DNA of 64,000 nt, from assembly GCA_050250375.1 (NCBI GenBank), contig JBFWOS010000003.1, forward strand, positions 209,284-273,283, given 5' to 3'. The translations under genes were made by a program, and so were the position numbers. How positions within the stretch are numbered: the stretch's first letter is position 1; each line of letters starts with the position of its first letter. Shown in pieces: positions 1 to 15,117 of the stretch. The notes below the pieces were generated by a model. That model was not told the DNA's origin. It saw only the letters and a program-made list of their open reading frames with translations, and did no database searches. This DNA comes from Candidatus Omnitrophota bacterium. GTDB taxonomy: Bacteria; Omnitrophota; Gorgyraeia; Zapsychrales; Zapsychraceae.

Positions 1-534
1 ATGGTGCATCGCCAACTCATTGCGGCTAATTTGTTTCTGAACTAAAGGCAGCAGACTAGCCGAATAACGGCCAATCAGCGGTTGATCAATCAAATGGACA
101 GATGCCTCCCCGTTCTCCTTAGCTGAACCATATTCTAAATGGGTCAAAATTGCCGGAGGTATTACCCAATCATCGATTAACAATTCAAAAACTTTTCTGT
201 TAACTGATCCAATATCACAAGGAGAAATAAGGTATTCCGAGTCTAGCCCTGAACTTAACAGCGCTTCTAATCCTCCCAAGGGTCCTCTATCTAATAAATT
301 ATCATTAATTTGGGTGATATGACGTAGGGATTCCGGAACTCCTTGACAATGTCCGACAAAAACAATCTCCCTACAAACTTTACTCAGAGCATTATAAACA
401 TGTTCAACCATCGTCAAACCGTCAGATAAAATAAGCCCTGCCTTGTGACAGCCCATTCTCGAACTATGCCCGCCGCAGAAAATCGCTCCTGTATGCGGCC
501 ATTTAATCGTTGGATACTCAATTAACTTGTTCAT
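1..534 (-). CDS. mobA: Molybdenum cofactor guanylyltransferase (MobA-like). Starts at 534 and runs off the window edge, so the C-terminus is missing.
   Basis: Reverse-strand translation gives KMNKLIEYPTIKWPHTGAIFCGGHSSRMGCHKAGLILSDG..., the MobA nucleotide-binding signature (xxLAGGxSxRMG). It overlaps the MOSC gene end by about 17 nt. It is not in the ORF track because the frame runs off the edge. Confidence 0.55.
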   Translation of the reverse strand, partial: MNKLIEYPTIKWPHTGAIFCGGHSSRMGCHKAGLILSDGLTMVEHVYNALSKVCREIVFVGHCQGVPESLRHITQINDNLLDRGPLGGLEALLSSGLDSEYLISPCDIGSVNRKVFELLIDDWVIPPAILTHLEYGSAKENGEASVHLIDQPLIGRYSASLLPLVQKQISRNELAMHH

Positions 535-1003
535 TTTCTGGTCTCATAACCTGGATTGTTTCAAAGACGGACAAAGCCCCTTCTTTAATGACCTTCGCAT
601 AATAACCACAGCGCCCAAGAATATCATTCTTCAGTCGAGGATCAATGGAATCCAGAACATAACAAGGCTGTCTTACCTTGCTCAATTCGATCTCAACGCC
701 CCCGGAAAACCTCAAACGTGTTCCCGTCGGCAACTGATTAACATTAAGGTTACTCACAGTAAGATTCTCACCGGTGGCACCGGCATAAAGTTTATATCCT
801 GCGTTTCTCAAATCAACCAATTTCTCTATATCCTGAAGGGAAACTGCCTGGATCGGCCGGTAATGTTTTTCGTGGTTATGACCGTCTCCTTGCAGCCCCC
901 CTTCTTTAATTACGACAGATTCAATCGGATACTTAGGGATTCCTCCCCCGGAAACATTGATTGAGATCACCTGCGGCAAATATTTGTCGCTAAACTTTAT
1001 CAT
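518..1003 (-). CDS. MOSC-domain protein (YiiM/YcbX-like molybdenum-cofactor sulfurase C-terminal domain)
   Basis: 161 aa with a conserved MOSC cysteine context (RQPCYVLD), co-oriented and tightly packed with mobA and the nitrate reductase genes. Confidence 0.55.
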   Translation of the reverse strand: MIKFSDKYLPQVISINVSGGGIPKYPIESVVIKEGGLQGDGHNHEKHYRPIQAVSLQDIEKLVDLRNAGYKLYAGATGENLTVSNLNVNQLPTGTRLRFSGGVEIELSKVRQPCYVLDSIDPRLKNDILGRCGYYAKVIKEGALSVFETIQVMRPENEQVN

Positions 1004-1018
1004 TACACTTTACCCTGC

Positions 1019-2353
1019 CTAAAATGATACGGTTGTTTCCACATAAAAATAATCGGCATCATCCGCTTTCCCGGTTTCCTTTAAGAAATCACCGGCGAAG
1101 AAATGAGAAACTCCCCCGATGACATTTAAATAATCATTCACTTTGTATTTCACGAGAAAATCAAGTTCATTCCCGACATGTTCGTCCGCTCCGGCTGTAG
1201 ATGCCGTCCGGATCGGCGCACGTCCGGCTGAGTACAATGAATCCATTGAAGTATCCAGAAAGAGAAAATGAAGATCAGACTGCACCTGTATTTTCTTGGT
1301 CGGCTTTGCCGAAATTTGCAATTTATAATTATTTATATTTTGCAAACTGGCCCTGTCCATGTATCCATAAAATAAATGATTTGTCGGATAAAGGTTGTTG
1401 AATGTATTTAACTCATCATCTGTCCGGTCATCGTCTCCCGACCCGTAATTATACTCAAAGGCCACCCGTGGTTTCCAGGTGAAATCGGCAAAGGTGTAAC
1501 CAAGAACAGCGACCGCCATTTGGGCGTCAACATCCAAAGCCCCGAACTCTCCCCATTGTTTAGCGGCTTCAAATTCATAATCAAAATTGGTGTCTTTAAT
1601 TTTACCAACAATCCGGCCTCCGATTGTGTATACATCCGTATTCGCGGCCCCACTCGGCCCAAAAGAAACATTCGTGTTAACAAACCGTTTGATAAAATAC
1701 TGTTCGATCGTTATATTCTCAATTCCTTTATATGTAGCGTAATACCCCCCCATTTCATCCTTGGTGCTGTTATCAAACCACTGGTTAAAGTCCCGCGGAG
1801 TTTGATTGGGAGTCTTAGTTCCGCCAAACCCGTCGATGCTCAATTTATATTCAGAAAAATTCAACATGATTTTTCCTGCCTCAAACGTCTGCGCGATATT
1901 AGACCAGTTAAACCCGCCGATAAGACGCTGGGCTCCATACGAGAGTTCCTGGCGGCCTAATCGAAAGCCGATATCGGGGATCAATTCGTCCTCGAATTTC
2001 AAAATGTCTTTCAACTCAATATAACCCTGACGGATCTCGGCATAATCTTCATTCCCTGCCTTACTGCCTTTGTCCTGATCCCAAACCCGGGCATCCTGGA
2101 ATTGAACGAAAAGCTTTGTCTGATCGGTCGGGATTAATTGCAGATTGACCCTGGTCCTAAATAAACTAAACGCATCCTGTCCGTCAACCGTATCATTAAA
2201 ATCAAAATTATCCTGATTCTCAAAGCGGTGGCGCACCTCTACATCCAGTTTAACCCATTTGGGCAGGTGTTTGTTTATGTACTCCCCTGCCAGGGCTGAC
2301 TTTGAAATCAAAATCATCATCATAGACAAAAATATTATTTGTACGTTTCTCAT
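1019..2353 (-). CDS. Outer-membrane beta-barrel porin (alginate-export/anion-porin-like). Possibly a nitrate/nitrite porin.
   Basis: 444 aa with an N-terminal signal peptide (MRNVQIIFLSMMMILISKSALAG). It is rich in aromatic and Gly residues in an alternating pattern, and ends in an aromatic residue (…VETTVSF). It is the first gene downstream of nasA in the same operon. Confidence 0.5.
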   Translation of the reverse strand: MRNVQIIFLSMMMILISKSALAGEYINKHLPKWVKLDVEVRHRFENQDNFDFNDTVDGQDAFSLFRTRVNLQLIPTDQTKLFVQFQDARVWDQDKGSKAGNEDYAEIRQGYIELKDILKFEDELIPDIGFRLGRQELSYGAQRLIGGFNWSNIAQTFEAGKIMLNFSEYKLSIDGFGGTKTPNQTPRDFNQWFDNSTKDEMGGYYATYKGIENITIEQYFIKRFVNTNVSFGPSGAANTDVYTIGGRIVGKIKDTNFDYEFEAAKQWGEFGALDVDAQMAVAVLGYTFADFTWKPRVAFEYNYGSGDDDRTDDELNTFNNLYPTNHLFYGYMDRASLQNINNYKLQISAKPTKKIQVQSDLHFLFLDTSMDSLYSAGRAPIRTASTAGADEHVGNELDFLVKYKVNDYLNVIGGVSHFFAGDFLKETGKADDADYFYVETTVSF

Positions 2354-2398: not shown

Positions 2399-4612
2399 TT
2401 AATAGTTCAATATCGACACCCTCGCTGCACATGTTTTATAAGAAGGCTGGCGGGAATAGGGATCAAAAGACGGGAAGGTCAGTTTGTTCGTTTCATCATA
2501 ATGCATCGGCAAAAATATTTGCCCCTCTCTTACCGTCGGGATAATGGAGGCCTGGGCCCGTACCTTGCCACGCCGTGTGCTCACGTAAACCCATTGATTC
2601 TGGTTAATATCGAGTGATCGTGCATCCCGGGGATTAATCTCGACATAAATATGTTTCGGATACATTTTCCTGAGCACCGCTGATTTCCCTGTCCGCGTTT
2701 GGGTATGCCATTGGGATGAAGTCCCTCGTCCGGTCAGGAGTTCAAAGGGATAGTATTCACACGGCGATTCAGGCTTTTCTTTAACTTCCTCGAAAATTAT
2801 TTTAGCCTTGCCGTCAGGGTGATAAAACAACCCGTCTTCAAATAACCGGCGTTCAGTCTTAAAATCGGCTTCACCTTCTTTCAACGGCCATTGAACACCT
2901 CCTTTTTCATCAAGCATTTTGTAATCAATAATTCCGGTCATATCACACGGCTGGCCTTTACTGAGTTTCTTTAATGTTTGGAATACATCTTCCGGTGTAT
3001 TCCAATTTTTGAACATATCGGCGCATCCCCAATAATCCGCAATTAATTTAAAAATATAAAAATCAGCTAAAGCCTGGCCGGGAGCCTGCGAGATATTCTT
3101 GATCAATCCAACCCGTCTTTCAGAATTAATAAACGTCCCCTCCTTCTCCCCCCAGCCTGCGGCCGGAAGGATCAGGTGCGCCAACCGGGCGGTCTCGGTC
3201 GTATGATACATATCCTGGACGACAAGAAAATCCAATTTTTTGACGATTGATTTAAATTCATTTTGATTGATCCAGGAATGCGCCGGGTTGGTCGCAATGA
3301 CCCACAATCCTTTTATCTTGCCCTGCGCGATGCCTTCAATAATCTGGTCATAGGCCCGGCTTTTCTTCGTTGGGATCAAGTTTTCATCAATACCCAGAAT
3401 CGAAGAAACCTTTTGACGGTGACTGGTGTCCAGAAAATCATATCCCCCCAGCAGGTTTGTCGTATTGCTGTATAATCTTGACCCCATCGCGTTGCATTGT
3501 CCGGTGATTGAGTTTGCCCCCGTACCTGGACGGCCGATATTCCCCGTGATCAGGGCCAGATTAATAATGGCTTGCGCCGTCCTCACCCCTTCATAACTCT
3601 GGTTCACCCCCATGGTCCACCAGAAGGAAACCCGTTTCCCCTGGAAAATCATTTCAGCTAATTCTTGAATATCTTTACTTGTCAAACCTGAAACTTGGGA
3701 AACTTTCTCGACCGTAAATGCTTGAACAGATTTTTTAAATTCCTGAAACCCGTTTGTATGGTGTTTAATATATTTTGTGTCGATCCATCCGTTCGTGATG
3801 AGGATATTCGCCAAACCGTAATACAGCGTTAAATCTGACTTAGGTTTGATTGCATAATGATGCGTGGCCGCCATAGCGGTTTCAGTCTTACGCGGATCAA
3901 TAACAATAATCTTAGGCTGATGTTTGTTCATCATGACGCGTTCCCACATGATCGGATGGGCTATACACGGATTTGCTCCGACAAAAATTAACGTATCAGA
4001 TTCCTCAAAATCAAGATAGGTATACGGCGGGGCATCAAAACCGAAAGATTCTTTATAGGCTGTCGCCGCTGTGGCCATGCATTGGCGCGTATTCGAATCA
4101 CCGTGGATAAATCCCATGCCGAATTTAGTCAACGCCCCCAATAAAGCCATCTCTTCTATCGGGAACTGTCCGGTACTTAAAAACGCGACACTCTCGTTTC
4201 CATATTGATGTTTAATTTTGACAAACCGGTTTACAAATTCGTTGAGAGCCGTTCCCCAATCCACCGCCTGTAATTGACCTTGTTGATTTCTTAAATATGG
4301 ACTTTGGGCCCGGTCGTGGGCTTTAAGCGGGGTTAACGCCTCCCATCCCTTCGGACAGGCCTCACCTAAATTGACCGGATAACTTCTAGTCGGTGTAATA
4401 TTGACCGGGGTATTGTTTTTGATATGAACATCCAGACTGCAGCCGGTTGAACAATAACCGCAAATCAGCCTGGATACGGTATCCGGCATTAACCGCTGGG
4501 GTAATTTACCTAAACCGAGGGCCGACTCCTCAAGGCGCAAATCCTGAGTCAAGGGGCCGTCCTTTTGATGGATCAAATCCTTTATATTTTTGAACGAAAG
4601 GTTCATTCTCAT
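2399..4612 (-). CDS. nasA: Assimilatory nitrate reductase catalytic subunit (molybdopterin oxidoreductase, NasA/NarB type)
   Basis: 737 aa with an N-terminal 4Fe-4S Cys motif (CGYCSTGC…C) and MopB-superfamily blocks. It has no twin-arginine signal, so it is cytoplasmic. It overlaps the upstream gene by 4 nt (ATGA coupling) and sits in an operon with nirBD and nrtABCD. Confidence 0.8.
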
Positions 4613-6276
4613 GAAAGCTGACCTCCGGGCATTTTCAAAGGAACCACCGCTTTAAAAAAAAGCAGCCGTTCAAACAGTTCAGCCCCTAAATTCAGACTGA
4701 AAATCAAAAATCCACCGGTTACGATCCACCCTGAAGAGATGTTGTCATTCAGGCTGAGAAAAAACAACGGCAGCAGGATCCCACCGGAAACGCCCAGGGC
4801 AAAACGCAAATATGTATAACCACGCAATTGCTGTATCATTAACAACGCGGTCTTTTTAATGAAAGTCAAATCACCCTTAGTCAGAGAAATAAAAACAACC
4901 GATTCAATCATAAGTTTTAATATCGTCATGACGAGAATGGCCAGACAAAATGTTTTCCCGAATGCGTCAACGATGATAAAGGTTGAAATCTTTTGAGATA
5001 CAAGAGAAACAAGAATCGCTGAAAAGAATATTGTTGAAAATCCCAGGATTCCCATCGTCATAAAAAACTTGGCGGTCGTATAGTTATTGTCCCAAAACGG
5101 CCGGCGGGTATCTTTATAAACCTTTACAGAACAATAAATCCCCAACATCCCAAAACCGGTAATAAAAAACGACAGCGCGTCAACAAATCCATCCCCTAAA
5201 ATTGAACCGATGACATTTGCGACCTTGGGAACCATCAGACAAACCGCGTACAAGACGGCTGATTTGGCAAATAGTCCGAAGGCCAGAATTTCCCGGCTCA
5301 GCCATGAAGTTTTTAGTCCCAAAATAGCCCGAAACGCATATTGCGGCCGTCCTAGATGCATAATGCTTGCTCCCAGCGCAAATAATCCGATGAATAAAGC
5401 AAAAAAAGTGTGATACTTATGCGTGAGCACATTGAGCGAAGGGTCTATGAATTTCGTTAATAAAATCTCGGCAAAGAAAGCTCCGACCGACAGTTGGGTC
5501 AAAACCAGCATAAAAACCAGAGGCAGGTGGGAATGCTCAGGCTTGATATGAAAATAATCATTCGAAACCATATTATCCGGAAAGCGCCTGTTTGTTTTAT
5601 ACCGGGTACTCGGATATGTATAATCGGATGCCGGTGCATCCGGAACTTTTACATAGTCTGAAGGATTTTTTTTAAGATCTTTCTTGTCAACAATGGTGAT
5701 CCTGATCGCACCGGTTGGACAAGCGCGGACACAGGCCGGAGCCTGACCGACATTCAACCGGCTGATACACATATCACATTTATGGACAATCCCTTTGCTC
5801 TTGTTGTATTTGGGCACTTCATACGGGCATTTTAATATGCAATACTGGCAGCCAAAACATTGGTCTTCCAGATGTTTGACTACCCCCGTCACGGTATCTT
5901 TTTCATACGCTTTCGTCGGACATCCATGCATACAAGCCGGTTCAGCGCAGTGATGACAGGCGGTCGTGATGTGCTGTATCGCGGGATTGGCACTTGTCCC
6001 TCCCTGAATCAGGCCGACAGACCGCCATGTTTCATCCGGGTCAAGTCCGTTTTCATTATGGCAAGCCGTCACACAGGCCTTGCAGCCCGTGCACTTATCC
6101 AAATCCACTTCAAAGGCATATTGCTGACCTTCCTGCGGCAGCTTTCCCGGCAAAAGTTCAGTATAATATTTCTCGCCTTTTTCAAATCCGTTTAAGTCGT
6201 GTTTGACCGAAAAATTCTCTACGGCGCTGAGTAAAGCCTGTCGGTCTAGGTATTGGTCGATTAATTTCTGGCTCAT
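4609..6276 (-). CDS. Fusion protein: N-terminal DmsB/NrfC/PsrB-like 4x[4Fe-4S] ferredoxin domain plus C-terminal DmsC/NrfD-like polytopic membrane anchor
   Basis: Four Cys clusters: [58 protein letters not shown]. About 8-9 hydrophobic helices follow, including the DmsC-type signature [24 protein letters not shown]. It lies immediately upstream of nasA. Confidence 0.6.
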
Positions 6277-6278
6277 GG

Positions 6279-6650
6279 TTAATTATTTAGAGTGCTGTGG
6301 ATATTTCCGTCGTGAATGTATAACGGGGTGTATTGGATTAACACATTCCCATGTTCAACCCAGGCGTTTAAAACTTTAAGATGCATAGGATTGTTATTCC
6401 CTTCTCCGGTAAACAGATCAAAACAAAACGATGTTTTTTTAGAAACCAATTCATCATCTTTGATGACACAATCGCTGACAAGTTCATCGGCCGCCAAAGA
6501 TTTGTTTTCATAACAATAAACTTTTTCCATCGGGCTTCTGAAGATGACAACCGGCTGCCCCTTAACTTGAAAAACGGTCCCTTCGTTGACGGGAATCTGA
6601 CTGAACTGACCGAGGTTGATTATAAGTGTTTTGACCATATGATCTCTCAA
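6279..6650 (-). CDS. NirD/Rieske-fold-like small protein lacking the Cys/His cluster ligands (degenerate NirD paralogue)
   Basis: 123 aa (TTG start in the track; an internal ATG at 6638 is more likely). The NirD-like beta-sandwich pattern is present (IPVNEGTVFQVKGQPVVIFR…) but there is no CxH…CxxH motif. It sits between the Fe-S/anchor gene and the ABC ATPase. Confidence 0.4.
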   Translation of the reverse strand: MRDHMVKTLIINLGQFSQIPVNEGTVFQVKGQPVVIFRSPMEKVYCYENKSLAADELVSDCVIKDDELVSKKTSFCFDLFTGEGNNNPMHLKVLNAWVEHGNVLIQYTPLYIHDGNIHSTLNN

Positions 6651-6652
6651 AC

Positions 6653-7561
6653 TTAAACGGCTAAAGTAAAATTTTTTTGTTGGGGTTCCATTCGTTCACG
6701 TGTCTTCTCCCTCTCCACGTCTTGAGACACCGGGTTGCTTTCAACTTCAAGATTGCTTTTATCATCATCCTTCTTTTCGTTTTCAATACCCTCTAAAAAG
6801 TTCATCAAATACCCCCGGTATTTGTAATAGTCCGGATGCTGGATGACTTCTTTTTTTATCCGTGGTCTCGGGAAATCAACTTTTAACACATCTCCGACCT
6901 TCGCATAGGGTCCGCTGGTCATCATAATGACCCGGTCGGATAACAGCAGGGATTCGTCGACATCGTGGGTAACGATAATCGCCGTGATTTTTTCCCTTGT
7001 CCATACTTCCAGTAAAACTTTCTGAAGTTCAGCTCGGGTTAACGAATCAAGCATGCCGAACGGTTCATCCAGCAGTAGCAATTTCGGTTTTAAAGCAAAT
7101 GCCCGGGCTATGCCGACACGCTGCTTCATCCCCGTTGATAGTTCGGCGGCCTTTTTATTAAAGCTGTCACCCAGCCCGACTTTATTCAAATAGTATTTGC
7201 ATATATCCATCTGCTGCGCTTTAGTGGCATGCCTGAAAACCTGCTGGACCCCTAAAAGGACATTTTCTAATGCGGTCATCCAGGGGAACAAACTGGGGGA
7301 TTGAAAAACGACGCCCCGGTCCGGACCGGCCGACGTAATCTCAATGCCCGCCAGAGAAATTACTCCGGATGAAATTTTATTTAATCCTGCGACCATGGAT
7401 AAGGCCGTTGACTTACCACACCCTGAGTGCCCGATAATGGACACAAATTCACCTTTGGCTATTTTAAGATTAAAGTTTTCCAGAACCACGTACGGCCCTT
7501 TCTGGCTTTGGTACACTTTTGAAATATTCTGAAAATGAAGATAATCGTCTTCTATGATCAC
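6653..7561 (-). CDS. nrtD: Nitrate/nitrite ABC transporter ATP-binding protein (NrtD position)
   Basis: 302 aa with Walker A GHSGCGKST, ABC signature LSTGMKQR and Walker B LLLDEP; NitT/TauT family. Confidence 0.8.
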   Translation of the reverse strand: MIIEDDYLHFQNISKVYQSQKGPYVVLENFNLKIAKGEFVSIIGHSGCGKSTALSMVAGLNKISSGVISLAGIEITSAGPDRGVVFQSPSLFPWMTALENVLLGVQQVFRHATKAQQMDICKYYLNKVGLGDSFNKKAAELSTGMKQRVGIARAFALKPKLLLLDEPFGMLDSLTRAELQKVLLEVWTREKITAIIVTHDVDESLLLSDRVIMMTSGPYAKVGDVLKVDFPRPRIKKEVIQHPDYYKYRGYLMNFLEGIENEKKDDDKSNLEVESNPVSQDVEREKTRERMEPQQKNFTLAV

Positions 7562-7575
7562 AACCCCTCCTAACT

Positions 7576-8457
7576 TTATTGTGCTTTATATGTATCGTAA
7601 TACAACAAACTCTTCGAGAGTCTTAAATCCAGCGGCTGAATGTCGGGTAATTCAAACTCTTCTTCAAGAACATTTACCCCGGAATCTTGTTTGATATCAA
7701 TCAAATATTTTGTAATGTCGTTTCTTAATTTCTTAAACCGTTCATGATGGTTCATTTCGGTTGCCCGTCGCGGCCTGGGGATATCAACGACGAAGGCAGG
7801 CCCAAGAGTGGCGTTCGGACCGGGATTCAGCGGAATGATCCGGTCGGCCAATAAAAGGCCTTCATCGACATCATTAGTGATTAATATGACCGTTCTTTTG
7901 TCCCGGCTCCAAATGTTCTCTATTTCTATCTGCAGAGTTCCCCGTGTTAACGCATCGAGCGCGCTCAACGGTTCATCCAGCAGAAGAATCTCCGGCTGCA
8001 TGGCCAGGGCCCTCGCCACCGAAACGCGCTGGCGCATCCCGCCTGACAATTCTCCCGGACGTTTGTCCATTGCCGGAGTCAGGTTGACCATTTCAATGTA
8101 TTTTCTGACATGCTCAGACCGGCGTTTTGAATCCCAATCAGGAAATACAGTATTAACACCGATCGCGACATTGCCTTCGACGGTTAACCAGGGCAGGAGA
8201 GAATAATTCTGAAAAACAATCCCTCGGTCAGGTCCTGGGCCTTCAATGGGTTTTCCTTTTAACAGCATCTCGCCGGAATCAGGCTTAAGCAGACCGGCCA
8301 GTAATGAAATAAGCGTAGTTTTACCGCTGCCGGAAAATCCGATAATCACAAGAAACTCCCCTTCCTGAACCTTAAGGTTTATCTTGTCGAGAACTTCCGT
8401 CCTGTTTTTTGAATCTCCGTATCCTTTGGAGATATTCTTTAATTCCAAAAAAGCCAT
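7576..8457 (-). CDS. nrtC: Nitrate/nitrite ABC transporter ATP-binding protein (NrtC position)
   Basis: 293 aa with Walker [10 protein letters not shown], signature LSGGMRQR and Walker B LLLDEP. Confidence 0.8.
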
Positions 8458-8467
8458 ACAAACTCCT

Positions 8468-9490
8468 TTATGCTGAAATGGGACCTTTTGAAAAACTGAC
8501 TGCCCTTTGGAACATGATCATAATCCGGTCAAGCATGAAGCCGATAATCCCGATAACAAAAACAGCCACCATGATCCTGGCTAACGAATGACTGCTCCCA
8601 TTTTGAAACTCGTCCCAGACAAACTTGCCTAATCCGGGATTTTGGGCGAGCATTTCCGCGGCAATCAAGACCATCCATCCCACCCCTAAAGAAATCCGCA
8701 AACCTGTAAAAATAAGAGGCAGCGACGCCGGCAGGACAATCTTGAATATCTTAGAAAATACTCCCAACTGCAGGACCCGGGCCACATTGATATAATCTTT
8801 ATCAATGGACGCCACGCCTAGCGCTGTGTTTAACAATGCCGGCCAAAGGGAACACAAAGAAACCGTAATCGCCGAATTGATAAATGATTTTTCGAACATC
8901 CCGTTTTTGGTCGTATACACCGCGCTGACGATCATGGTGACAATCGGCAGCCAGGCCAACGGTGAAACAGGTTTAAAGATCTGAATCAATGGATTTAAGG
9001 CCGTCATAAAAGTCCGGCTGATCCCGCACAAGATCCCGACCGGAACCGCAATAGCGGCAGCAATAATAAATCCGACAAAGACCGTTACTAAACTTGTACG
9101 GATTTGTTTGAGAAAAGTCGGCTTACCCGTGTACTTCCTCACTTTTATTTCGGCATCAGGATTTTTTTGCAATTTTTCAACATTACGTTTTTCCTGCTGC
9201 TGATAAAACTCCTTCTCCTTGAGTTTTTCCTGACTATGTTCCGCCATAAGCTGTTTTCCAGCTTCAAAAACCTGTATTGGCCCAGGGACTTCCCCCAGGC
9301 TGGTTTGGATACGTGAGGCCGATGCTCCCCACAATACCAAAAACACCATTATAGCCACGAGCGGAACACCGATCATCGCCCACATTTCTTTAAATTGTTC
9401 CTTAGGACTCTCCCCTGTTAACAAGCGGATTACTGGGATGGGCCATGTAAACCCGGCTAAGTCCAATGCGTTGATCACTTTATTCTTCAT
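8468..9490 (-). CDS. nrtB: Nitrate ABC transporter permease (NrtB-like)
   Basis: 340 aa polytopic membrane protein of the NitT/TauT permease family, sitting between the substrate-binding and ATPase genes. Confidence 0.8.
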
Positions 9491-9510
9491 GACGAATTAT
9501 TCTCCTTCGT

Positions 9511-10884
9511 TTAAATCTTGTCTTTATTGCCAATCGTGAATTTGTTGAGATATTCATTCGGCTTTTTACCGTCATAAATAATCCCGTCGATAAAATCTCC
9601 CGTGGCTTCTTTGAAGCCATCAGTCTGGGGAATATCTTCAGCGTTAATTTTTCCTTCCTTTAACAATTCAGCAGAGGCAGCCTGCCATACTTCCGGCATG
9701 TAAATACTCTTTGCTGTCTCCAGATACCAGGAATCCGTCTGCGCTTCAGTAATCTGTCCCCAACGTCTCATTTGAGTTAAGAACCAGACGGCATCGCTGT
9801 AGAAAGGATATGTCGCATGATAACGGTAGAATACGTTGAAATCCGGCATTGATCTTTTATCGCCCTTTTCAAATTCGAATGATCCGGTCATGCTGTTGGC
9901 GATGACTTCGTAATCTGCGCCGACATATTCAGGTTTAGACAATATCTTCGCAGCCTCCGCCCTATTTTTTCCATTATCTTCATCCAGCCATTGCCCTGCT
10001 CTGATCAGCGCTTTTACAACGGCGATATGAGTATTTGGATTCTTATCTGCCCATTCTTTTGTCACCCCAAACACTTTCTCAGGATTATTTTTCCAAATAT
10101 CGTAATTTGTTACGACCGGAACGCCAATACCTTTGAATACCGCCTGCTGGTTCCATGGCTCTCCGACGCAATACCCGTAAATGGTCCCAGCTTCCAACGT
10201 TGCGGGCATTTGCGGCGGCGGCGTCACGGATAAAAGCACATCTGCATTGGTCGTTCCCGTGATATCTTCTTTTGTATAAAATCCCGGTTTAATACCGGCG
10301 GCAGCCAGCCAATACCGGATTTCATAATTATGAGTCGAGACAGGAAAGACCATGCCCATTTTAAATTCTTTACCGGCGGCACGATATTTTTCAACAATTG
10401 GTTTAAGCGCATCCGCTTTGATCGGATGAACCGGTTTTCCATTTTCCATAGGGATGTGCTGTTTCATTTCGCTCCAGATATCATTGGAGACGGTGATTCC
10501 ATTTCCATTCAAATCCATACTGAACGCCGTTACAATATGGGCTTTGGTACCGAATCCGATGGTTGCGCCAATTGGCTGGCCGGCCAGCATATGTGCTCCG
10601 TCCAGCTCACCATCAATGACCCGGTCCAAGAGGACCTTCCAATTGGCCTGGGCTTCCAGCGTGACATAAAGGCCTTCATCATCAAAAAAACCCTTCTCCT
10701 TCGCAATAGCCAGCGGGGCCATATCCGTAAGTTTAATAAATCCGAACTTCAACTCATCCTTTTCAAGTTCTCCGTCGGCAAAGACCGGATGCACAATTAA
10801 CCCAGCCAGTAGGGCTCCCAAAATGACATTCTTGAAGGTAAGCTTTCTTAAAAAATCTATGTAATTTATTCTTTTCATATTCAC
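9511..10884 (-). CDS. nrtA: Nitrate ABC transporter substrate-binding protein (NrtA-like)
   Basis: 457 aa with a signal peptide. It resembles the NrtA/CmpA periplasmic-binding family (…[21 protein letters not shown]…) and is the first transporter gene after nirBD. Confidence 0.75.
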
Positions 10885-11069: not shown

Positions 11070-11402
11070 CTAAATCATATTTAAATAAATCTCATCATTT
11101 TCAATCTTGACCGGGTATGTTCTCAAAGTCCAATCCTGGTTTCCTCCCAAATGTTTGCCGGTTTTCAGAGAAAACGAGTTTTTATGTAACGGACAGGCGA
11201 TCTTCGGTTCCCCCTGGTCTTCACCGGTTAACCCCCGGGATAAAACACTTTGTTTTTTATGCGGACAGGTGTTTTGAACGGCATACCATTCGTTCTGGCT
11301 TTCAAAATTAAAAATTGCGATTTGAAGCTCCCCGACCTTGACGCAACTTCCGCCGTTGCGAAGGACATCTTCTTTCTTACATACTTTCACCCATTCAGAC
11401 AT
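11070..11402 (-). CDS. nirD: Nitrite reductase [NAD(P)H] small subunit NirD (Rieske type)
   Basis: 110 aa with Rieske motifs CPHKKQ…CPLHK. Its start overlaps the nirB stop. Confidence 0.8.
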   Translation of the reverse strand: MSEWVKVCKKEDVLRNGGSCVKVGELQIAIFNFESQNEWYAVQNTCPHKKQSVLSRGLTGEDQGEPKIACPLHKNSFSLKTGKHLGGNQDWTLRTYPVKIENDEIYLNMI

Positions 11403-13936
11403 TATCCGTCTCCCATCATCGGCTTATGGTTTGAAACCTCTTCCAGAATAAGCGGTTTGATTTGACCACGTTCTTCGGTAAATTGTATGGTTGTATCTGT
11501 ATCAGGCGAATTGACAAAAGGCCGAAACCTTTTCAACTTTTCCGGATCATCTAACGCCTCCGACCATTCACATTTATAAGTATCCACCTGATATTGCATC
11601 TCCGCTTCCAATTCAGCACAAATTCCCAAACAGTCATCAATAATAATTTCTTTGAGCCGGTCAATCCCGCCTTCAAACTTATTTAACCATGTTGCCGTGC
11701 GAGTTAATCTATCTGCTGTCCGGATGTAATACATCAAGAATCGGTCAATATATTTGATCAATGTGGTCTCATCCAAGTCTTCAGCAAACAGTCTGGCGTG
11801 CTGGGGCTTCATTCCGCCGTTACCGCACAGATAAAGGTTATACCCTTTATCTGTGGCAATAACGCCGAAATCTTTGCTCTGCGCTTCAGCACATTCGCGG
11901 GAACAACCTGAAACGGCCGATTTAATTTTGTGCGGAGCCCTTAATCCTTTATACCGGTTTTCGATTCTGATCGCCAAACCGACGCTGTCCTGGACTCCGA
12001 ACCGGCACCAGGTTGACCCCACACAGGATTTTACTGTGCGCAAAGCCTTGGCATATGCATGGCCGCTTTCAAGCCCGACCTCTTGTAATTTCTTCCAAAT
12101 CTTTGGCAATTGTTCCAATTTAGCCCCGAACATGTCGATTCTCTGTCCACCCGTAATTTTGGTGTAAAGGTTAAACTCTTTGGCCACCGCCCCAATAGCC
12201 ATCAACTGGTCGGGAGTAATCTCTCCTCCGGGAATTCTTGGGATCACAGAATAAGATCCATTCTTCTGTATATTGGCCAAAAAATGATCGTTTGAATCCT
12301 GGATATCTTGATGCTTCAAAACAAATTCGTTTTGATAGCTGGCCAGGATGGAAGCAACGGCCGGTTTACAAATTTCACATCCCCGTCCTTTTCCATACCG
12401 CCCCAAGACCTCCCAATAACTCCTGATCTTTTCCGTACGGATGATTTCAGCCAATTCAATCCGGGAATAACTAAAACATCCGCACATGGATTTATTGACA
12501 GTTCCCCCGGATTTCTTGACTTCAAGATTAATAATATCGGTAATTAACGGAACACATCCCCCGCATCCGGTCCCGGCCTTGGTGCATTTCTTTATGTCGG
12601 CTACTGTTTTGGAACCATTTTTATACGCCTCAATAATCTGGCCTTTGGTGATATTTTCACATGAACAGATTCCTGCCGTGTCTGGAAAGGCCGCAACCCC
12701 GCTGTCTTCCGAGGAAGATTTCAGTTGGATCAATAAAGACTCCGGTGAATCGGGAACCTTAATCTGCGCCTGACAAATTTGTAATAACTTTCCGTATTCA
12801 GACGCATCCCCGATCAGAATCCCGCCAATGAGAGTTTTAGAATTTTTATCAATTAATAATCTTTTGTAAATACCCCCTAATCCGTTATGGATCATGACAT
12901 TCACAATGTCATTTCCTTCAGCAAACGGATTTCCGAAACTTCCGACATCAACCCCCATCAACTTAAGTTTTGTTGACATGTCCGCTCCGGTAAATTCATT
13001 CGTTTCACCGGTCAATTGACTGGCGACGACATCCGCCATTTTGTACCCCGGGGCAATAAGTCCATACACCATCCCTTCATAGACGGCGCATTCTCCGATC
13101 GCGTAGATATCCTCCGCTGAAGTTTTCAATTGTGAATCCACTAAGATCCCGCCCCGTTCCCCAACCTTAATTCCATTGGACTTGGCAATATCGTCTCTTG
13201 GACGAATCCCGGCCGAAACAACGATCATATCCACCTTCAACACTTGTCCGTCTGCAAAGACGATTCCATCCACACAATCATTACCGGAGACTTCTTTCGT
13301 CGTCTTGTTCAAATGAACTTCAATCCCTAATTTTTCAATCTGTCTTTGCAAAAATTCTGAACCGGTCTGATCAACCTGTCGGGGCATCAACCGGGGATTA
13401 AATTCGATCACGTTCGTATTTAACTTAAGATCCAGTAAGGCCTTGGCTGCCTCCAGCCCCAAAAGACCGCCACCGATCACAGCCGCGGATTTAACATTCT
13501 TGGCGTATTCAATGATGGCATCCAGGTCTTCAATCGTCCTATAGACGAATACGCCCTGCTTGTTTATCCCGGGGACAGGGGGGACAAACGGTGTTGAACC
13601 GGTGGCCAGAACCAGTTTGTCGTATTCAAGCTTCTTTCCTTTATCCGAGATGATAAATTTCTCAACCGGATTAATGGTTGTCACCTTCTCATTGACATAC
13701 AGATCCACTCCGTTTTCCTCATACCAGGAAAATGGCGCCATTGTCAGTTCTTCAAGAGTCTTACCGCTGAAATAGGCGGTTAAATTAACCCGATCATAAG
13801 CCGGACGGGGCTCTTCTCCAAAAACAGTAACCCGGTATTGGTTCAGTTTGTCTTTATTGATAAGCTTCTCACAAAACTTGTACCCGACCATGCCGTTACC
13901 AACGACAATTATTCTCTTTCGGATTTGGTTAATCAT
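11402..13936 (-). CDS. nirB: Nitrite reductase [NAD(P)H] large subunit NirB
   Basis: 844 aa with an N-terminal FAD/NAD Rossmann motif (IIVVGNGMVGYKF), sirohaem/4Fe-4S nitrite-sulfite reductase blocks, and a BFD-like 2Fe-2S insert. Confidence 0.9.
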   Translation of the reverse strand: MINQIRKRIIVVGNGMVGYKFCEKLINKDKLNQYRVTVFGEEPRPAYDRVNLTAYFSGKTLEELTMAPFSWYEENGVDLYVNEKVTTINPVEKFIISDKGKKLEYDKLVLATGSTPFVPPVPGINKQGVFVYRTIEDLDAIIEYAKNVKSAAVIGGGLLGLEAAKALLDLKLNTNVIEFNPRLMPRQVDQTGSEFLQRQIEKLGIEVHLNKTTKEVSGNDCVDGIVFADGQVLKVDMIVVSAGIRPRDDIAKSNGIKVGERGGILVDSQLKTSAEDIYAIGECAVYEGMVYGLIAPGYKMADVVASQLTGETNEFTGADMSTKLKLMGVDVGSFGNPFAEGNDIVNVMIHNGLGGIYKRLLIDKNSKTLIGGILIGDASEYGKLLQICQAQIKVPDSPESLLIQLKSSSEDSGVAAFPDTAGICSCENITKGQIIEAYKNGSKTVADIKKCTKAGTGCGGCVPLITDIINLEVKKSGGTVNKSMCGCFSYSRIELAEIIRTEKIRSYWEVLGRYGKGRGCEICKPAVASILASYQNEFVLKHQDIQDSNDHFLANIQKNGSYSVIPRIPGGEITPDQLMAIGAVAKEFNLYTKITGGQRIDMFGAKLEQLPKIWKKLQEVGLESGHAYAKALRTVKSCVGSTWCRFGVQDSVGLAIRIENRYKGLRAPHKIKSAVSGCSRECAEAQSKDFGVIATDKGYNLYLCGNGGMKPQHARLFAEDLDETTLIKYIDRFLMYYIRTADRLTRTATWLNKFEGGIDRLKEIIIDDCLGICAELEAEMQYQVDTYKCEWSEALDDPEKLKRFRPFVNSPDTDTTIQFTEERGQIKPLILEEVSNHKPMMGDG

Positions 13937-14265: not shown

Positions 14266-15117
14266 TTACGCAACCTCCATGGACTTAAGATAAGCAACCA
14301 GATCCGTATTCTCTTTTGAAATCTTAAGTTTTTTTCGGATATGGTTTCTATGATTATCTATGGTTCGAATTGATGCGTTCAGTATATCGGCAATCTCCTT
14401 ACTGGTATGTCCTTGTTTGATCATATTGCATATTTCAATCTCTCTTTGGGAGAGATCCAAATCGCGGCCGGATACTTTTGTCCCAAATCCGGAGGTAATT
14501 GTCTCAAGATTTTTTTCTAACATTTCTATATGACGCCTGTCAATGGGACTGCCTTTTCTCTTCAACTTTTCCACCAGGGGCCAGACAAGCTGGTTGAGAT
14601 TATTGCGAATATGATCTTTGATCCTGTTTTTTTCGATTTCGAGCTCGATTAAAAGTTGATTTAATACGAGGTTCTTTTGTTCAAGTATCTTTTTCTGATG
14701 AATCAGTTCCCGTTCTGCATCTGAAAACATGGACTTATTTTTAATTTCTTCTTTTCGGGAGACAAAAAACATGACGCCTCTTGTATTTAAAAGTTGACCC
14801 TTGTCATCAAAATGTGCTGAAGCATTAAGAATTACATCAATCTGATGCCCCTTTTTATGCACGAGTGTATAGTGCAGATTGTCAACTTTTCCTTTTTCAT
14901 GGATATCCTTCCAATGCTGTTCAAACTGGGTCCTTTGCTCCTCAATAATCAAATCCGACCATTCTTTGCGATTGATGATTTCATCCCGGGCATACCCCAG
15001 CATATCCAACTCGGTTTGATTCATATAAATAATCTTGCGGTTGGGTCCAAAGGCGTGTAAACCAATGGGTGAATTTTCGAAACAATCACCTAGGTATTGA
15101 TCGTCCAGATTGTTCAT
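14266..15117 (-). CDS. PAS-domain / LuxR-type HTH transcriptional regulator (no receiver domain)
   Basis: 283 aa with an N-terminal PAS-like region and a C-terminal GerE/LuxR HTH (LSQREIEICNMIKQGHTSKEIADILNASIRTIDNHRNHIRKKL). It lies directly upstream of the nir-nrt-nas operon. Confidence 0.7.
   Translation of the reverse strand: MNNLDDQYLGDCFENSPIGLHAFGPNRKIIYMNQTELDMLGYARDEIINRKEWSDLIIEEQRTQFEQHWKDIHEKGKVDNLHYTLVHKKGHQIDVILNASAHFDDKGQLLNTRGVMFFVSRKEEIKNKSMFSDAERELIHQKKILEQKNLVLNQLLIELEIEKNRIKDHIRNNLNQLVWPLVEKLKRKGSPIDRRHIEMLEKNLETITSGFGTKVSGRDLDLSQREIEICNMIKQGHTSKEIADILNASIRTIDNHRNHIRKKLKISKENTDLVAYLKSMEVA

Follow-up and report, generated by a model that had tools for sequence, protein, structure and literature searches.

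A single-chain DmsB-DmsC protein encoded with a Nas/Nap-group nitrate reductase: a candidate quinol-linked module for nitrate assimilation

Textbooks describe assimilatory nitrate reductases as soluble enzymes that take their electrons from NAD(P)H, ferredoxin or flavodoxin. Membrane-linked nitrate reduction is known from other enzymes. NarG belongs to a different, Asp-liganded lineage, and its anchor NarI is a di-haem b protein that oxidizes quinol at the periplasmic side, so that Nar is electrogenic; NapGH, the quinol dehydrogenase of Nap, is a non-canonical quinone link. The locus considered here lies in a 64,000-nucleotide stretch of DNA from a Candidatus Omnitrophota bacterium (GenBank assembly GCA_050250375.1, contig JBFWOS010000003.1, positions 209,284 to 273,283), referred to as the window. 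It encodes a 555-residue fusion of DmsB-like and DmsC-like parts, designated BC, and directly downstream a 737-residue molybdoenzyme, designated NasA. On balance, BC and NasA probably constitute a two-gene, membrane-bound, cytoplasm-facing, non-electrogenic quinol:nitrate oxidoreductase that serves assimilation.

In a 2021 review of the relevant membrane proteins, SoeABC is the only complex of the NrfD/DmsC type proposed to face the N-side, and a complex of the BC-NasA type is not listed (PMC8076601). According to a recent phylogeny of the whole family, canonical four-cluster or membrane-anchor subunits are associated with no member of the Fdh/Nas/Aio/Nap clade (PMC7331816), a generalization that the BC-NasA cassette contradicts. 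The parts themselves are known, namely the four-cluster protein (FCP) subunit, the DmsC/NrfD anchor and the Nas-type catalytic subunit; their combination, the fusion and the predicted inverted orientation are not. No published description of a BC-NasA system was found in the full-text literature, where subscription journals are thinly covered and a prior mention is possible.

The BC fusion protein and its catalytic partner

BC is encoded on the minus strand at 4609..6276, as delineated by Pfam, alignment, a structural model and Foldseek, and aligns end to end with E. coli DmsB and then DmsC, in colinear order. A sequence-only reading of this DNA had described it as a ferredoxin with four cysteine clusters followed by a polytopic DmsC-type domain with an HLGRP...SWLSRE signature, and both parts of this description are borne out. 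Fer4_11 matches residues 103-193 (E 4e-23; 82 bits versus a cut-off of 26.2) and DmsC PF04976 matches residues 250-457 (62.5 versus 22.3 bits), with HLGRP at residues 307-311 and SWLSRE at 324-329. The best NCBIfam model is DmsB TIGR02951, with 133.2 bits versus a cut-off of 214.1; since this score falls below the cut-off, BC is no DmsB equivalog.

The protein begins with an extension absent from E. coli DmsB (aa 1-51; 6124..6276, minus strand; family alignment), whose consensus is LTAVExF..HD...Y.ELIPK..PGPGQQYAF and in which F22, Y38, L41, P43 and P47 are invariant. The ferredoxin domain follows (aa 52-200; 5677..6123, minus strand; Pfam, NCBIfam and alignment). Its 16 cysteines, all invariant in 116 homologues, make up four [4Fe-4S] motifs (62/65/68/72, 107/110/115/119, 140/143/146/150 and 167/170/182/186). 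A linker (aa 201-250; 5527..5676, minus strand), placed by alignment with DmsB and DmsC, corresponds to the C-terminal tail of DmsB plus the first residues of DmsC and carries an invariant KPEHSH just before the first transmembrane helix (TM1).

The DmsC-family membrane domain (aa 251-545; 4642..5526, minus strand) has eight transmembrane helices with a predicted N-in/C-in arrangement, based on hydropathy, AlphaFold2 (AF2) and counts of Lys plus Arg (K+R). A putative quinol site, H307-LGRP311 with S324-WLSRE329 (5290..5358, minus strand), is assigned by alignment with DmsC to the TM2-TM3 loop, which is predicted to be cytoplasmic. His65 of DmsC (in HLGSP) aligns with H307 (in HLGRP), and Glu87 (in SNEI) with E329 (in SREI). 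Changing H65 of DmsC blocks quinol oxidation, and E87 has been named as a quinone-site residue (PMC8076601). Residues H250, H307-P311, R316, S324, W325, S327 and E329 are invariant in the 116 homologues, and the whole HLGRP/SWLSRE loop is invariant also in a broader set of 101 sequences that takes in planctomycete isolates.

The AF2 model of BC, built on the 116-homologue alignment, reaches a pLDDT of 85 and a pTM of 0.85 and has eight long helices after residue 250. With Foldseek, the N-terminal half matches FdnH (1kqf_B, E 3e-7), ArrB (6cz7_B) and PsrB (2vpw_B, TM(target) 0.71), and the C-terminal half matches ActC (6btm_C) and PsrC (2vpw_C), with TM(target) 0.65. The anchor is only ~28% identical to DmsC/YnfH, and a tblastn search with the membrane domain against plasmids gave only three weak matches, all to DmsC/YnfH, and no SoeC. 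The only invariant histidines near the anchor are H250 and H307, both on the same side of the membrane, and the invariant histidines of the family alignments offer no plausible candidates for bis-His haem ligands.

The charge distribution of the anchor is uniform across the family. In the 116 sequences, the side bearing the Fe-S domain (L2, L4, L6 and the C-terminal tail) carries 16.0 K+R on average versus 3.4 on the opposite side, with the same sign in 116/116; in the broader set, the values are 14.4 and 2.9, with the same sign in 101/101. E. coli DmsC, counted on the same alignment columns, has the reverse bias (4 versus 7). By the positive-inside rule, the Fe-S domain and the HLGRP/SWLSRE loop are predicted to be cytoplasmic, a placement of the Fe-S domain that the sequence-only reading had left to be checked and that every sequence counted supports. 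The BC module is accordingly predicted to be inverted relative to E. coli DmsABC. No Tat-like (twin-arginine translocation) motif was found in any of the 116 BC-family sequences. By its predicted topology, BC departs from the DmsC-type arrangement, in which the termini and the quinol site are placed on the periplasmic (P) side and the A and B subunits are Tat-exported, and agrees with a SoeABC-like one, in which the A and B subunits have no Tat signal and the anchor is inverted.

The partner gene, nasA, occupies 2399..4612 on the minus strand and encodes the catalytic subunit of a nitrate reductase with a molybdenum bis(pyranopterin guanine dinucleotide) (Mo-bisPGD) cofactor, as indicated by Pfam, NCBIfam and a neighbour-joining (NJ) tree. 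Its start overlaps the BC stop by the four nucleotides ATGA (4609..4612, minus strand), an arrangement of translational coupling already pointed out from the sequence and confirmed by direct inspection of the junction (...CAG CTT TCA TGA / ATG AGA ATG...). The protein has the Pfam domains Molybdop_Fe4S4, Molybdopterin and Molydop_binding. As had been stated earlier, it bears an N-terminal Fe-S motif, the FS0 [4Fe-4S] site C51-G-Y-C54-S-T-G-C58 (C51-x2-C54-x3-C58; 4439..4462, minus strand; Pfam and sequence), and it contains neither a twin-arginine (RRxFLK) motif nor a hydrophobic signal region. In the Mo-ligand motif NTRQ-C178-M-ATA (4067..4093, minus strand; alignment), Cys178-Met aligns with the Sec/Cys ligand of molybdenum and follows the N[ST]RxCM pattern common to Nas and Nap, whereas FdhF and FdnG carry ARV(U/C)HGP at this position.

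FS0 is preceded in NasA by a clade-specific extension of ~49 residues (aa 1-49; 4466..4612, minus strand; alignment). It is hydrophilic and conserved, with the consensus GxLTxEL...GLG[KQ][VL]P...PD, and recurs in the BC-linked homologues of L010, L025, L043, L050, L077, L120 and other loci; it is absent from the NarA-like enzyme of Cetobacterium, from FdhF and from proteobacterial NasA. This segment may serve in docking or chaperone binding, or may be a vestigial Tat-like segment.

The identity of the catalytic subunit has to be weighed against its database scores. Its highest raw NCBIfam score is that of a formate dehydrogenase (FDH) model, TIGR01591 Fdh-alpha (515 bits versus a cut-off of 666), and its best PDB match is also an FDH (9t1s_L, 363 bits). 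The nitrate reductase models NasC NF047855 (455.6 versus 1100), NasA NF041323 (439.1 versus 1000) and NapA (339, below cut-off) follow; the 25 best of 27 NCBIfam matches include no NarG model. In the NJ tree (698 columns, 100 rooted bootstraps), the BC-linked reductases form their own clade (100%), sister to the NarA-like enzyme of Cetobacterium (100%); all nitrate reductases are split from FDHs (89%), and grouping with FdhF receives 0%. Pairwise identity is 46% with the Cetobacterium somerae enzyme and 31-34% with proteobacterial NasA. The sequence-only reading had left the reductase to be placed phylogenetically, and the tree, together with the Cys-Met motif, assigns it to the Nas/Nap group. 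The 737-residue protein is thus supported, from its sequence features, as a Tat-less nitrate reductase of this group.

Public annotation takes another view of BC, calling it 'Anaerobic dimethyl sulfoxide reductase chain B', 'formate dehydrogenase iron-sulfur subunit' or a 'DmsC/YnfH family' anchor. If these names were right, BC would be the B/C subunit of a dimethyl sulfoxide (DMSO) reductase, or the iron-sulfur subunit of an FDH working with a formate dehydrogenase. Apart from the source annotations themselves, the FDH models that top the NCBIfam and PDB lists of the catalytic subunit speak for such names, but every one of its NCBIfam scores is below cut-off, its active site is Cys-Met and not Sec/Cys-His, the tree joins it to the nitrate reductases, and its surroundings contain nitrate and nitrite genes and no DmsA-type subunit. 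That the names are correct is scarcely credible, and the DMSO-reductase and formate-dehydrogenase naming of BC is likely a systematic misannotation. Active-site motif, tree position and gene neighbourhood led to dismissal of both the FDH and the DMSO reductase identity. Misnaming of BC can yield false calls of DMSO respiration or formate oxidation in genomes and metagenomes.

Conserved pairing and nitrate-assimilation context

The system is common. A word-indexed search with BC gave thousands of matches, among which full-length fusions are 48-95% identical; the membrane domain alone retrieved 159 clusters (50% identity) at E<=1e-30, as well as many matches of ~290-320 aa that might be taken for anchor subunits standing alone; these start at a conserved internal Met (M236, M256) and are probably truncated gene calls. 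A metagenome scan confirmed at least 592 stretches carrying BC. BC also occurs in the complete genomes of isolates, namely Gimesia alba (CP036269.1; L120:10001-11746), G. fumaroli, G. aquarii, G. panareensis, G. chilikensis and Symmachiella dynata. The Gimesia and Symmachiella isolates are aerobic heterotrophs. The carriers thus span Omnitrophota, cultured Planctomycetes, Chthoniobacterales-type soil bacteria and these metagenome stretches.

For comparison of gene order, 111 loci were used: the window, 28 genome loci (mostly from metagenome-assembled genomes of Omnitrophota), 80 metagenome loci from soil, marine and freshwater samples, one Chthoniobacterales contig and Gimesia alba. In 101/111 loci, BC is followed by a NasA homologue that is 53-70% identical. 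Nine of the remaining ten end at a contig edge, and in the tenth (L028) the match to BC is broken and NasA lies 0.7 kb downstream. The co-occurrence of the fusion with nasA, which the sequence-only reading had put forward for checking, therefore holds in all evaluable loci. The four-nucleotide overlap is found also in distant members, L039 and a JGI contig.

What surrounds the pair varies. The neighbours are NirB with NirD, an Omnitrophota NirB-like protein with a small Rieske protein, NirA-rubredoxin-Rieske, or NirA with a CysJ-like protein, and NarK or NrtABCD. A nitrate transporter and an assimilatory nitrite reductase are encoded in the window cluster and in most of the 111 loci. Three loci ('class e') have only an MFS nitrate-transporter-like gene directly upstream, and at least six have BC-NasA without adjoining nitrogen genes. 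As the type of nitrite reductase changes around the pair and isolated pairs occur, BC-NasA is supported as a self-contained module. Several Omnitrophota and metagenome loci have, adjoining BC-NasA, a fusion of a NirA-type protein (two NIR_SIR modules) with rubredoxin-like and Rieske parts and without a flavin domain (L014:4491-6584, L007:5791-7959, L013:2780-5047 and L017:1-1749). Gimesia alba encodes a single protein of 992 aa (L120:6231-9209) in which NirB is fused with a Rieske NirD.

An assimilatory role is likewise supported by nrtABCD or NarK, by the nitrite reductases encoded alongside and by the presence of the system in Gimesia and Symmachiella isolates. It could be held instead that the complex is mainly respiratory (dissimilatory), an analogue of NarGHI in anaerobic Omnitrophota whose NrfD-like domain might aid ion translocation. 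It is indeed built like a respiratory complex iron-sulfur molybdoenzyme, the respiratory chains of some Omnitrophota are patchy (PMC10066038), and ion pathways have been proposed for NrfD-like subunits (PMC8076601). Little probability is given to this role, however, because the context is consistently assimilatory, with ATP-driven NrtABCD or NarK and ammonium-forming siroheme nitrite reductases, and because no charge separation is expected when the quinol and active sites lie on the same side. The presence of the system in planctomycete isolates, which are aerobic, also speaks against it.

In the window itself, 11 minus-strand genes form a co-directional run from 13936 down to 518, in the order nirB, nirD, nrtA, nrtB, nrtC, nrtD, a gene for a 123-aa Rieske-like protein, BC, nasA, a porin gene and a MOSC gene. 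Neighbouring genes of the run are spaced by -4 to 45 nt, with one larger gap of 185 nt that separates nirD from nrtA. A simple scan found no convincing intergenic terminator in the cluster; it gave a promoter-like site upstream of nirB with 10/12 matches, which is weak evidence. A protein with PAS and LuxR/GerE-type domains, encoded just upstream of nirB (14266-15117, minus strand), is a candidate regulator of the cluster.

The first two genes of the run encode an NAD(P)H nitrite reductase (11070..13936, minus strand; Pfam and NCBIfam). NirB (844 aa) has FAD/NAD(P)H and siroheme domains and scores 1086 bits with TIGR02374; NirD (110 aa; 11070-11402) is of the Rieske type with the CPH...CPLH ligands kept, and may be a true [2Fe-2S] ferredoxin like NasG of Paracoccus. 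They are followed by nrtA-nrtB-nrtC-nrtD (6653..10884, minus strand), an ABC-type nitrate importer named from the resemblance of its open reading frame (ORF) translations, homologues of which (60-84% identical) occur in related nitrate clusters. The 123-aa Rieske-fold protein (6279..6650, minus strand; Rieske_2 24.9 bits, below cut-off) has no CxH/CxxH cluster ligands, and its gene ends 2 nt upstream of that of BC.

Downstream of nasA, the run continues with an outer-membrane porin of the Alginate_exp family (1019..2353, minus strand; Pfam and related loci), which is recurrent in such clusters and possibly acts as an outer-membrane channel for nitrate or nitrite. A gene for a beta-barrel porin of this alginate-export family sits directly upstream of BC in 11 related loci. 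The MOSC-domain protein (518..1003, minus strand; Pfam and related loci) is encoded after the porin in the window and directly after nasA in many related loci; handling of the molybdenum cofactor or detoxification of N-hydroxylated by-products can be guessed as its role.

Electron supply to NasA

The domain identities, predicted topology, conserved pairing and nitrate-assimilation context are computed results; that BC and NasA form a physical complex, that it takes electrons from quinol and that it is non-electrogenic is inferred. BC would insert into the inner membrane as a single-chain DmsB-DmsC module with its Fe-S domain and quinol pocket facing the cytoplasm, and NasA, translated from the overlapping downstream gene, would dock on the Fe-S domain. 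Quinol would be oxidized at the H307/E329 site, and electrons would pass through the four [4Fe-4S] clusters to FS0 and on to the Mo-bisPGD of NasA. Imported nitrate would thus be reduced to nitrite by NasA, and nitrite then to ammonium by NirBD. With haem ligands absent from the anchor and the quinol and active sites on one and the same side of the membrane, the quinol:nitrate step should be electroneutral, and energy conservation, if any, would come from whichever enzyme reduces quinone. Electron transfer from quinol to nitrate is thermodynamically easy by standard potentials.

Several observations weigh against quinol as the donor. Its assignment draws on conserved residues only. No genes for quinone biosynthesis or respiration were found among the 20 larger ORFs scanned at 14-64 kb of the window; some classes of Omnitrophota have ubiquinone/menaquinone pathways and others do not (PMC10066038). 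The window cluster itself holds NirB and a ligand-bearing Rieske NirD, and in Paracoccus NasB, NasG and NasC have been proposed to share NADH-derived electrons (PMC6618116). Finally, in 21 of ~103 evaluable loci, a gene for an NAD(P)H flavoprotein lies immediately upstream of BC and sometimes overlaps it, encoding a CysJ-like diflavin reductase at 12 loci and an FNR-like protein at 9, including Gimesia alba; on this evidence, flavoproteins of this kind could use the Fe-S domain as an adaptor. Such genes lie at L039:1-1524 and L120:9224-9994 and in L050, L052, L054, L060, L062, L064, L075, L083, L074, L077, L079, L099, L111 and L116. In soil loci and those of the Chthoniobacterales type, the CysJ-like gene runs into the start of BC. 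In Gimesia alba and marine loci, a spacing of 7 nt separates BC from the upstream gene of the FNR-like protein (256 aa; FAD_binding_6/NAD_binding_1).

These neighbours are the ground for regarding BC as a membrane-tethered polyferredoxin adaptor that passes electrons from an NAD(P)H flavoprotein (CysJ-like or FNR-like) or a soluble ferredoxin to NasA, a reading that appears rather unlikely. The related proposals that the DmsC-like domain merely tethers the complex, for example beside a nitrate transporter, or provides a secondary quinone link deserve the same reserve. A flavoprotein gene beside BC is missing from about 80% of the loci, and BC-NasA occurs several times as an isolated pair. Moreover, the type of flavoprotein tracks the type of nitrite reductase: the CysJ-like gene is found only at loci with a NirA-type nitrite reductase (all those with enough upstream DNA), as in CysJ/CysI, and the FNR-like gene often accompanies NirA-rubredoxin-Rieske. 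For this reason, the flavoproteins may serve the nitrite reductase, although service to the nitrate reductase or to both may also be considered. The quinol-site residues are invariant in 101-116 sequences, lineages with a flavoprotein neighbour included, and their invariance disfavours a mere tether.

NirB and NirD raise the alternative that, by the Paracoccus NasBGC precedent, NADH electrons could pass from the FAD of NirB through the Rieske NirD to the window NasA, with BC as an alternative or accessory route. Both proteins, with CPH...CPLH intact in NirD, are encoded in the same co-directional cluster as NasA, and the NasB-NasG-NasC model offers a parallel (PMC6618116). Such a feed is nevertheless improbable: BC-NasA pairing is independent of the type of nitrite reductase and is kept both where a flavin domain is missing from this enzyme and where the two genes stand by themselves; NasA here is without the C-terminal extension of the 885-913-aa proteobacterial NasA; and six genes separate nirD from nasA, whereas BC overlaps nasA.

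The fate of the original proposal is therefore mixed. A membrane-linked quinol supply to an assimilatory NasA fits the domains, the topology, the pairing and the conserved site, while quinol oxidation itself has been deduced from conservation. The accompanying statement that the operon holds no NasB/NasC-type partner does not stand. A separate NAD(P)H-dependent electron-transfer subunit in the operon had been named as evidence against the proposal, and as worded the statement falls by that standard because NirB (FAD/NAD(P)H) and the ligand-bearing Rieske NirD lie in the same cluster. Nor does the lack of an NAD(P)H partner extend to relatives, ~20% of which have a CysJ-like or FNR-like gene directly upstream of BC.

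Should quinol prove to be the donor, the groups that carry the system would need another accounting of the reductant that nitrate assimilation costs, a second inverted module of the NrfD/DmsC type would stand beside SoeABC, and a two-gene system would become testable in cultivable planctomycetes. A bolder extension, possible but doubtful, is that BC-NasA forms, after Nar and Nap, a third and so far unrecognized class of nitrate reductases bound to the membrane, with nitrate assimilation then branching from the respiratory chain and fed via quinone reductases such as complex I. Were this true, building biomass nitrogen would also conserve energy. The same enzyme could then double as a terminal electron sink in anaerobic bacteria of the PVC (Planctomycetes-Verrucomicrobia-Chlamydiae) group such as Omnitrophota, and the inverted NrfD-like domain, together with the CysJ/FNR-like flavoproteins adjoining it in some lineages, could form an NAD(P)H-or-quinol hub.

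Comparison with known systems

With E. coli DmsABC, BC shares the four Cys motifs, an eight-helix haem-less anchor and the equivalents of His65 and Glu87. It differs in that the B and C parts form one polypeptide, in its predicted inverted orientation, in the lack of any subunit with a Tat signal and in its catalytic partner, which is a Nas-type nitrate reductase and not DmsA. SoeABC, likened here by description (PMC8076601), is also cytoplasm-facing, with an inverted anchor and an N-side quinone site. However, it consists of three separate subunits, its electrons flow from substrate to quinone and its catalytic subunit belongs to a different clade; membership of the SoeABC type is unlikely because BC is partnered by a reductase of the Nas/Nap group.

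NarGHI, too, sits in the membrane, transfers electrons from quinol to nitrate, has its active site in the cytoplasm and includes a four-cluster subunit, the likeness in quinol use holding if BC works as proposed. The BC anchor, in contrast, is of the DmsC type without candidate bis-His haem ligands, and BC-NasA does not show the defining components of NarGHI, namely a NarG-type catalytic subunit (judged from the 25 best NCBIfam matches), NarH (the model for which scores only 51 bits versus a cut-off of 524) and a di-haem NarI. NapGH differs in serving a periplasmic enzyme, and NapH is not DmsC-like. B. subtilis ForCE is a menaquinone-linked formate dehydrogenase of the Fdh/Nas/Nap clade that, like BC-NasA, has a non-canonical partner (PMC8808070); this partner, ForE, is a small DUF1641 protein and not an FCP/NrfD module.

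Among annotated records, the closest relative of the catalytic subunit is the NarA-like enzyme of Cetobacterium somerae, of the clostridial/fusobacterial cytoplasmic type. Encoded with it are a soluble, ferredoxin-like dicluster protein of 135 aa and an FAD-dependent oxidoreductase; a membrane anchor and the N-terminal extension are both absent. The soluble NasA/NarB/NasC enzymes (Paracoccus NasBGC, Klebsiella NasCA, B. subtilis NasBC) resemble the BC-linked reductases in being cytoplasmic, Tat-less Mo-bisPGD proteins with FS0 and Cys-Met, encoded with nitrate transporters and siroheme nitrite reductases. They draw electrons from flavoproteins that use NAD(P)H, from ferredoxin or from flavodoxin and have no membrane anchor, whereas the BC-linked clade falls below the NasC and NasA equivalog cut-offs, has its own N-terminal extension and is accompanied by a BC partner in every evaluable locus.

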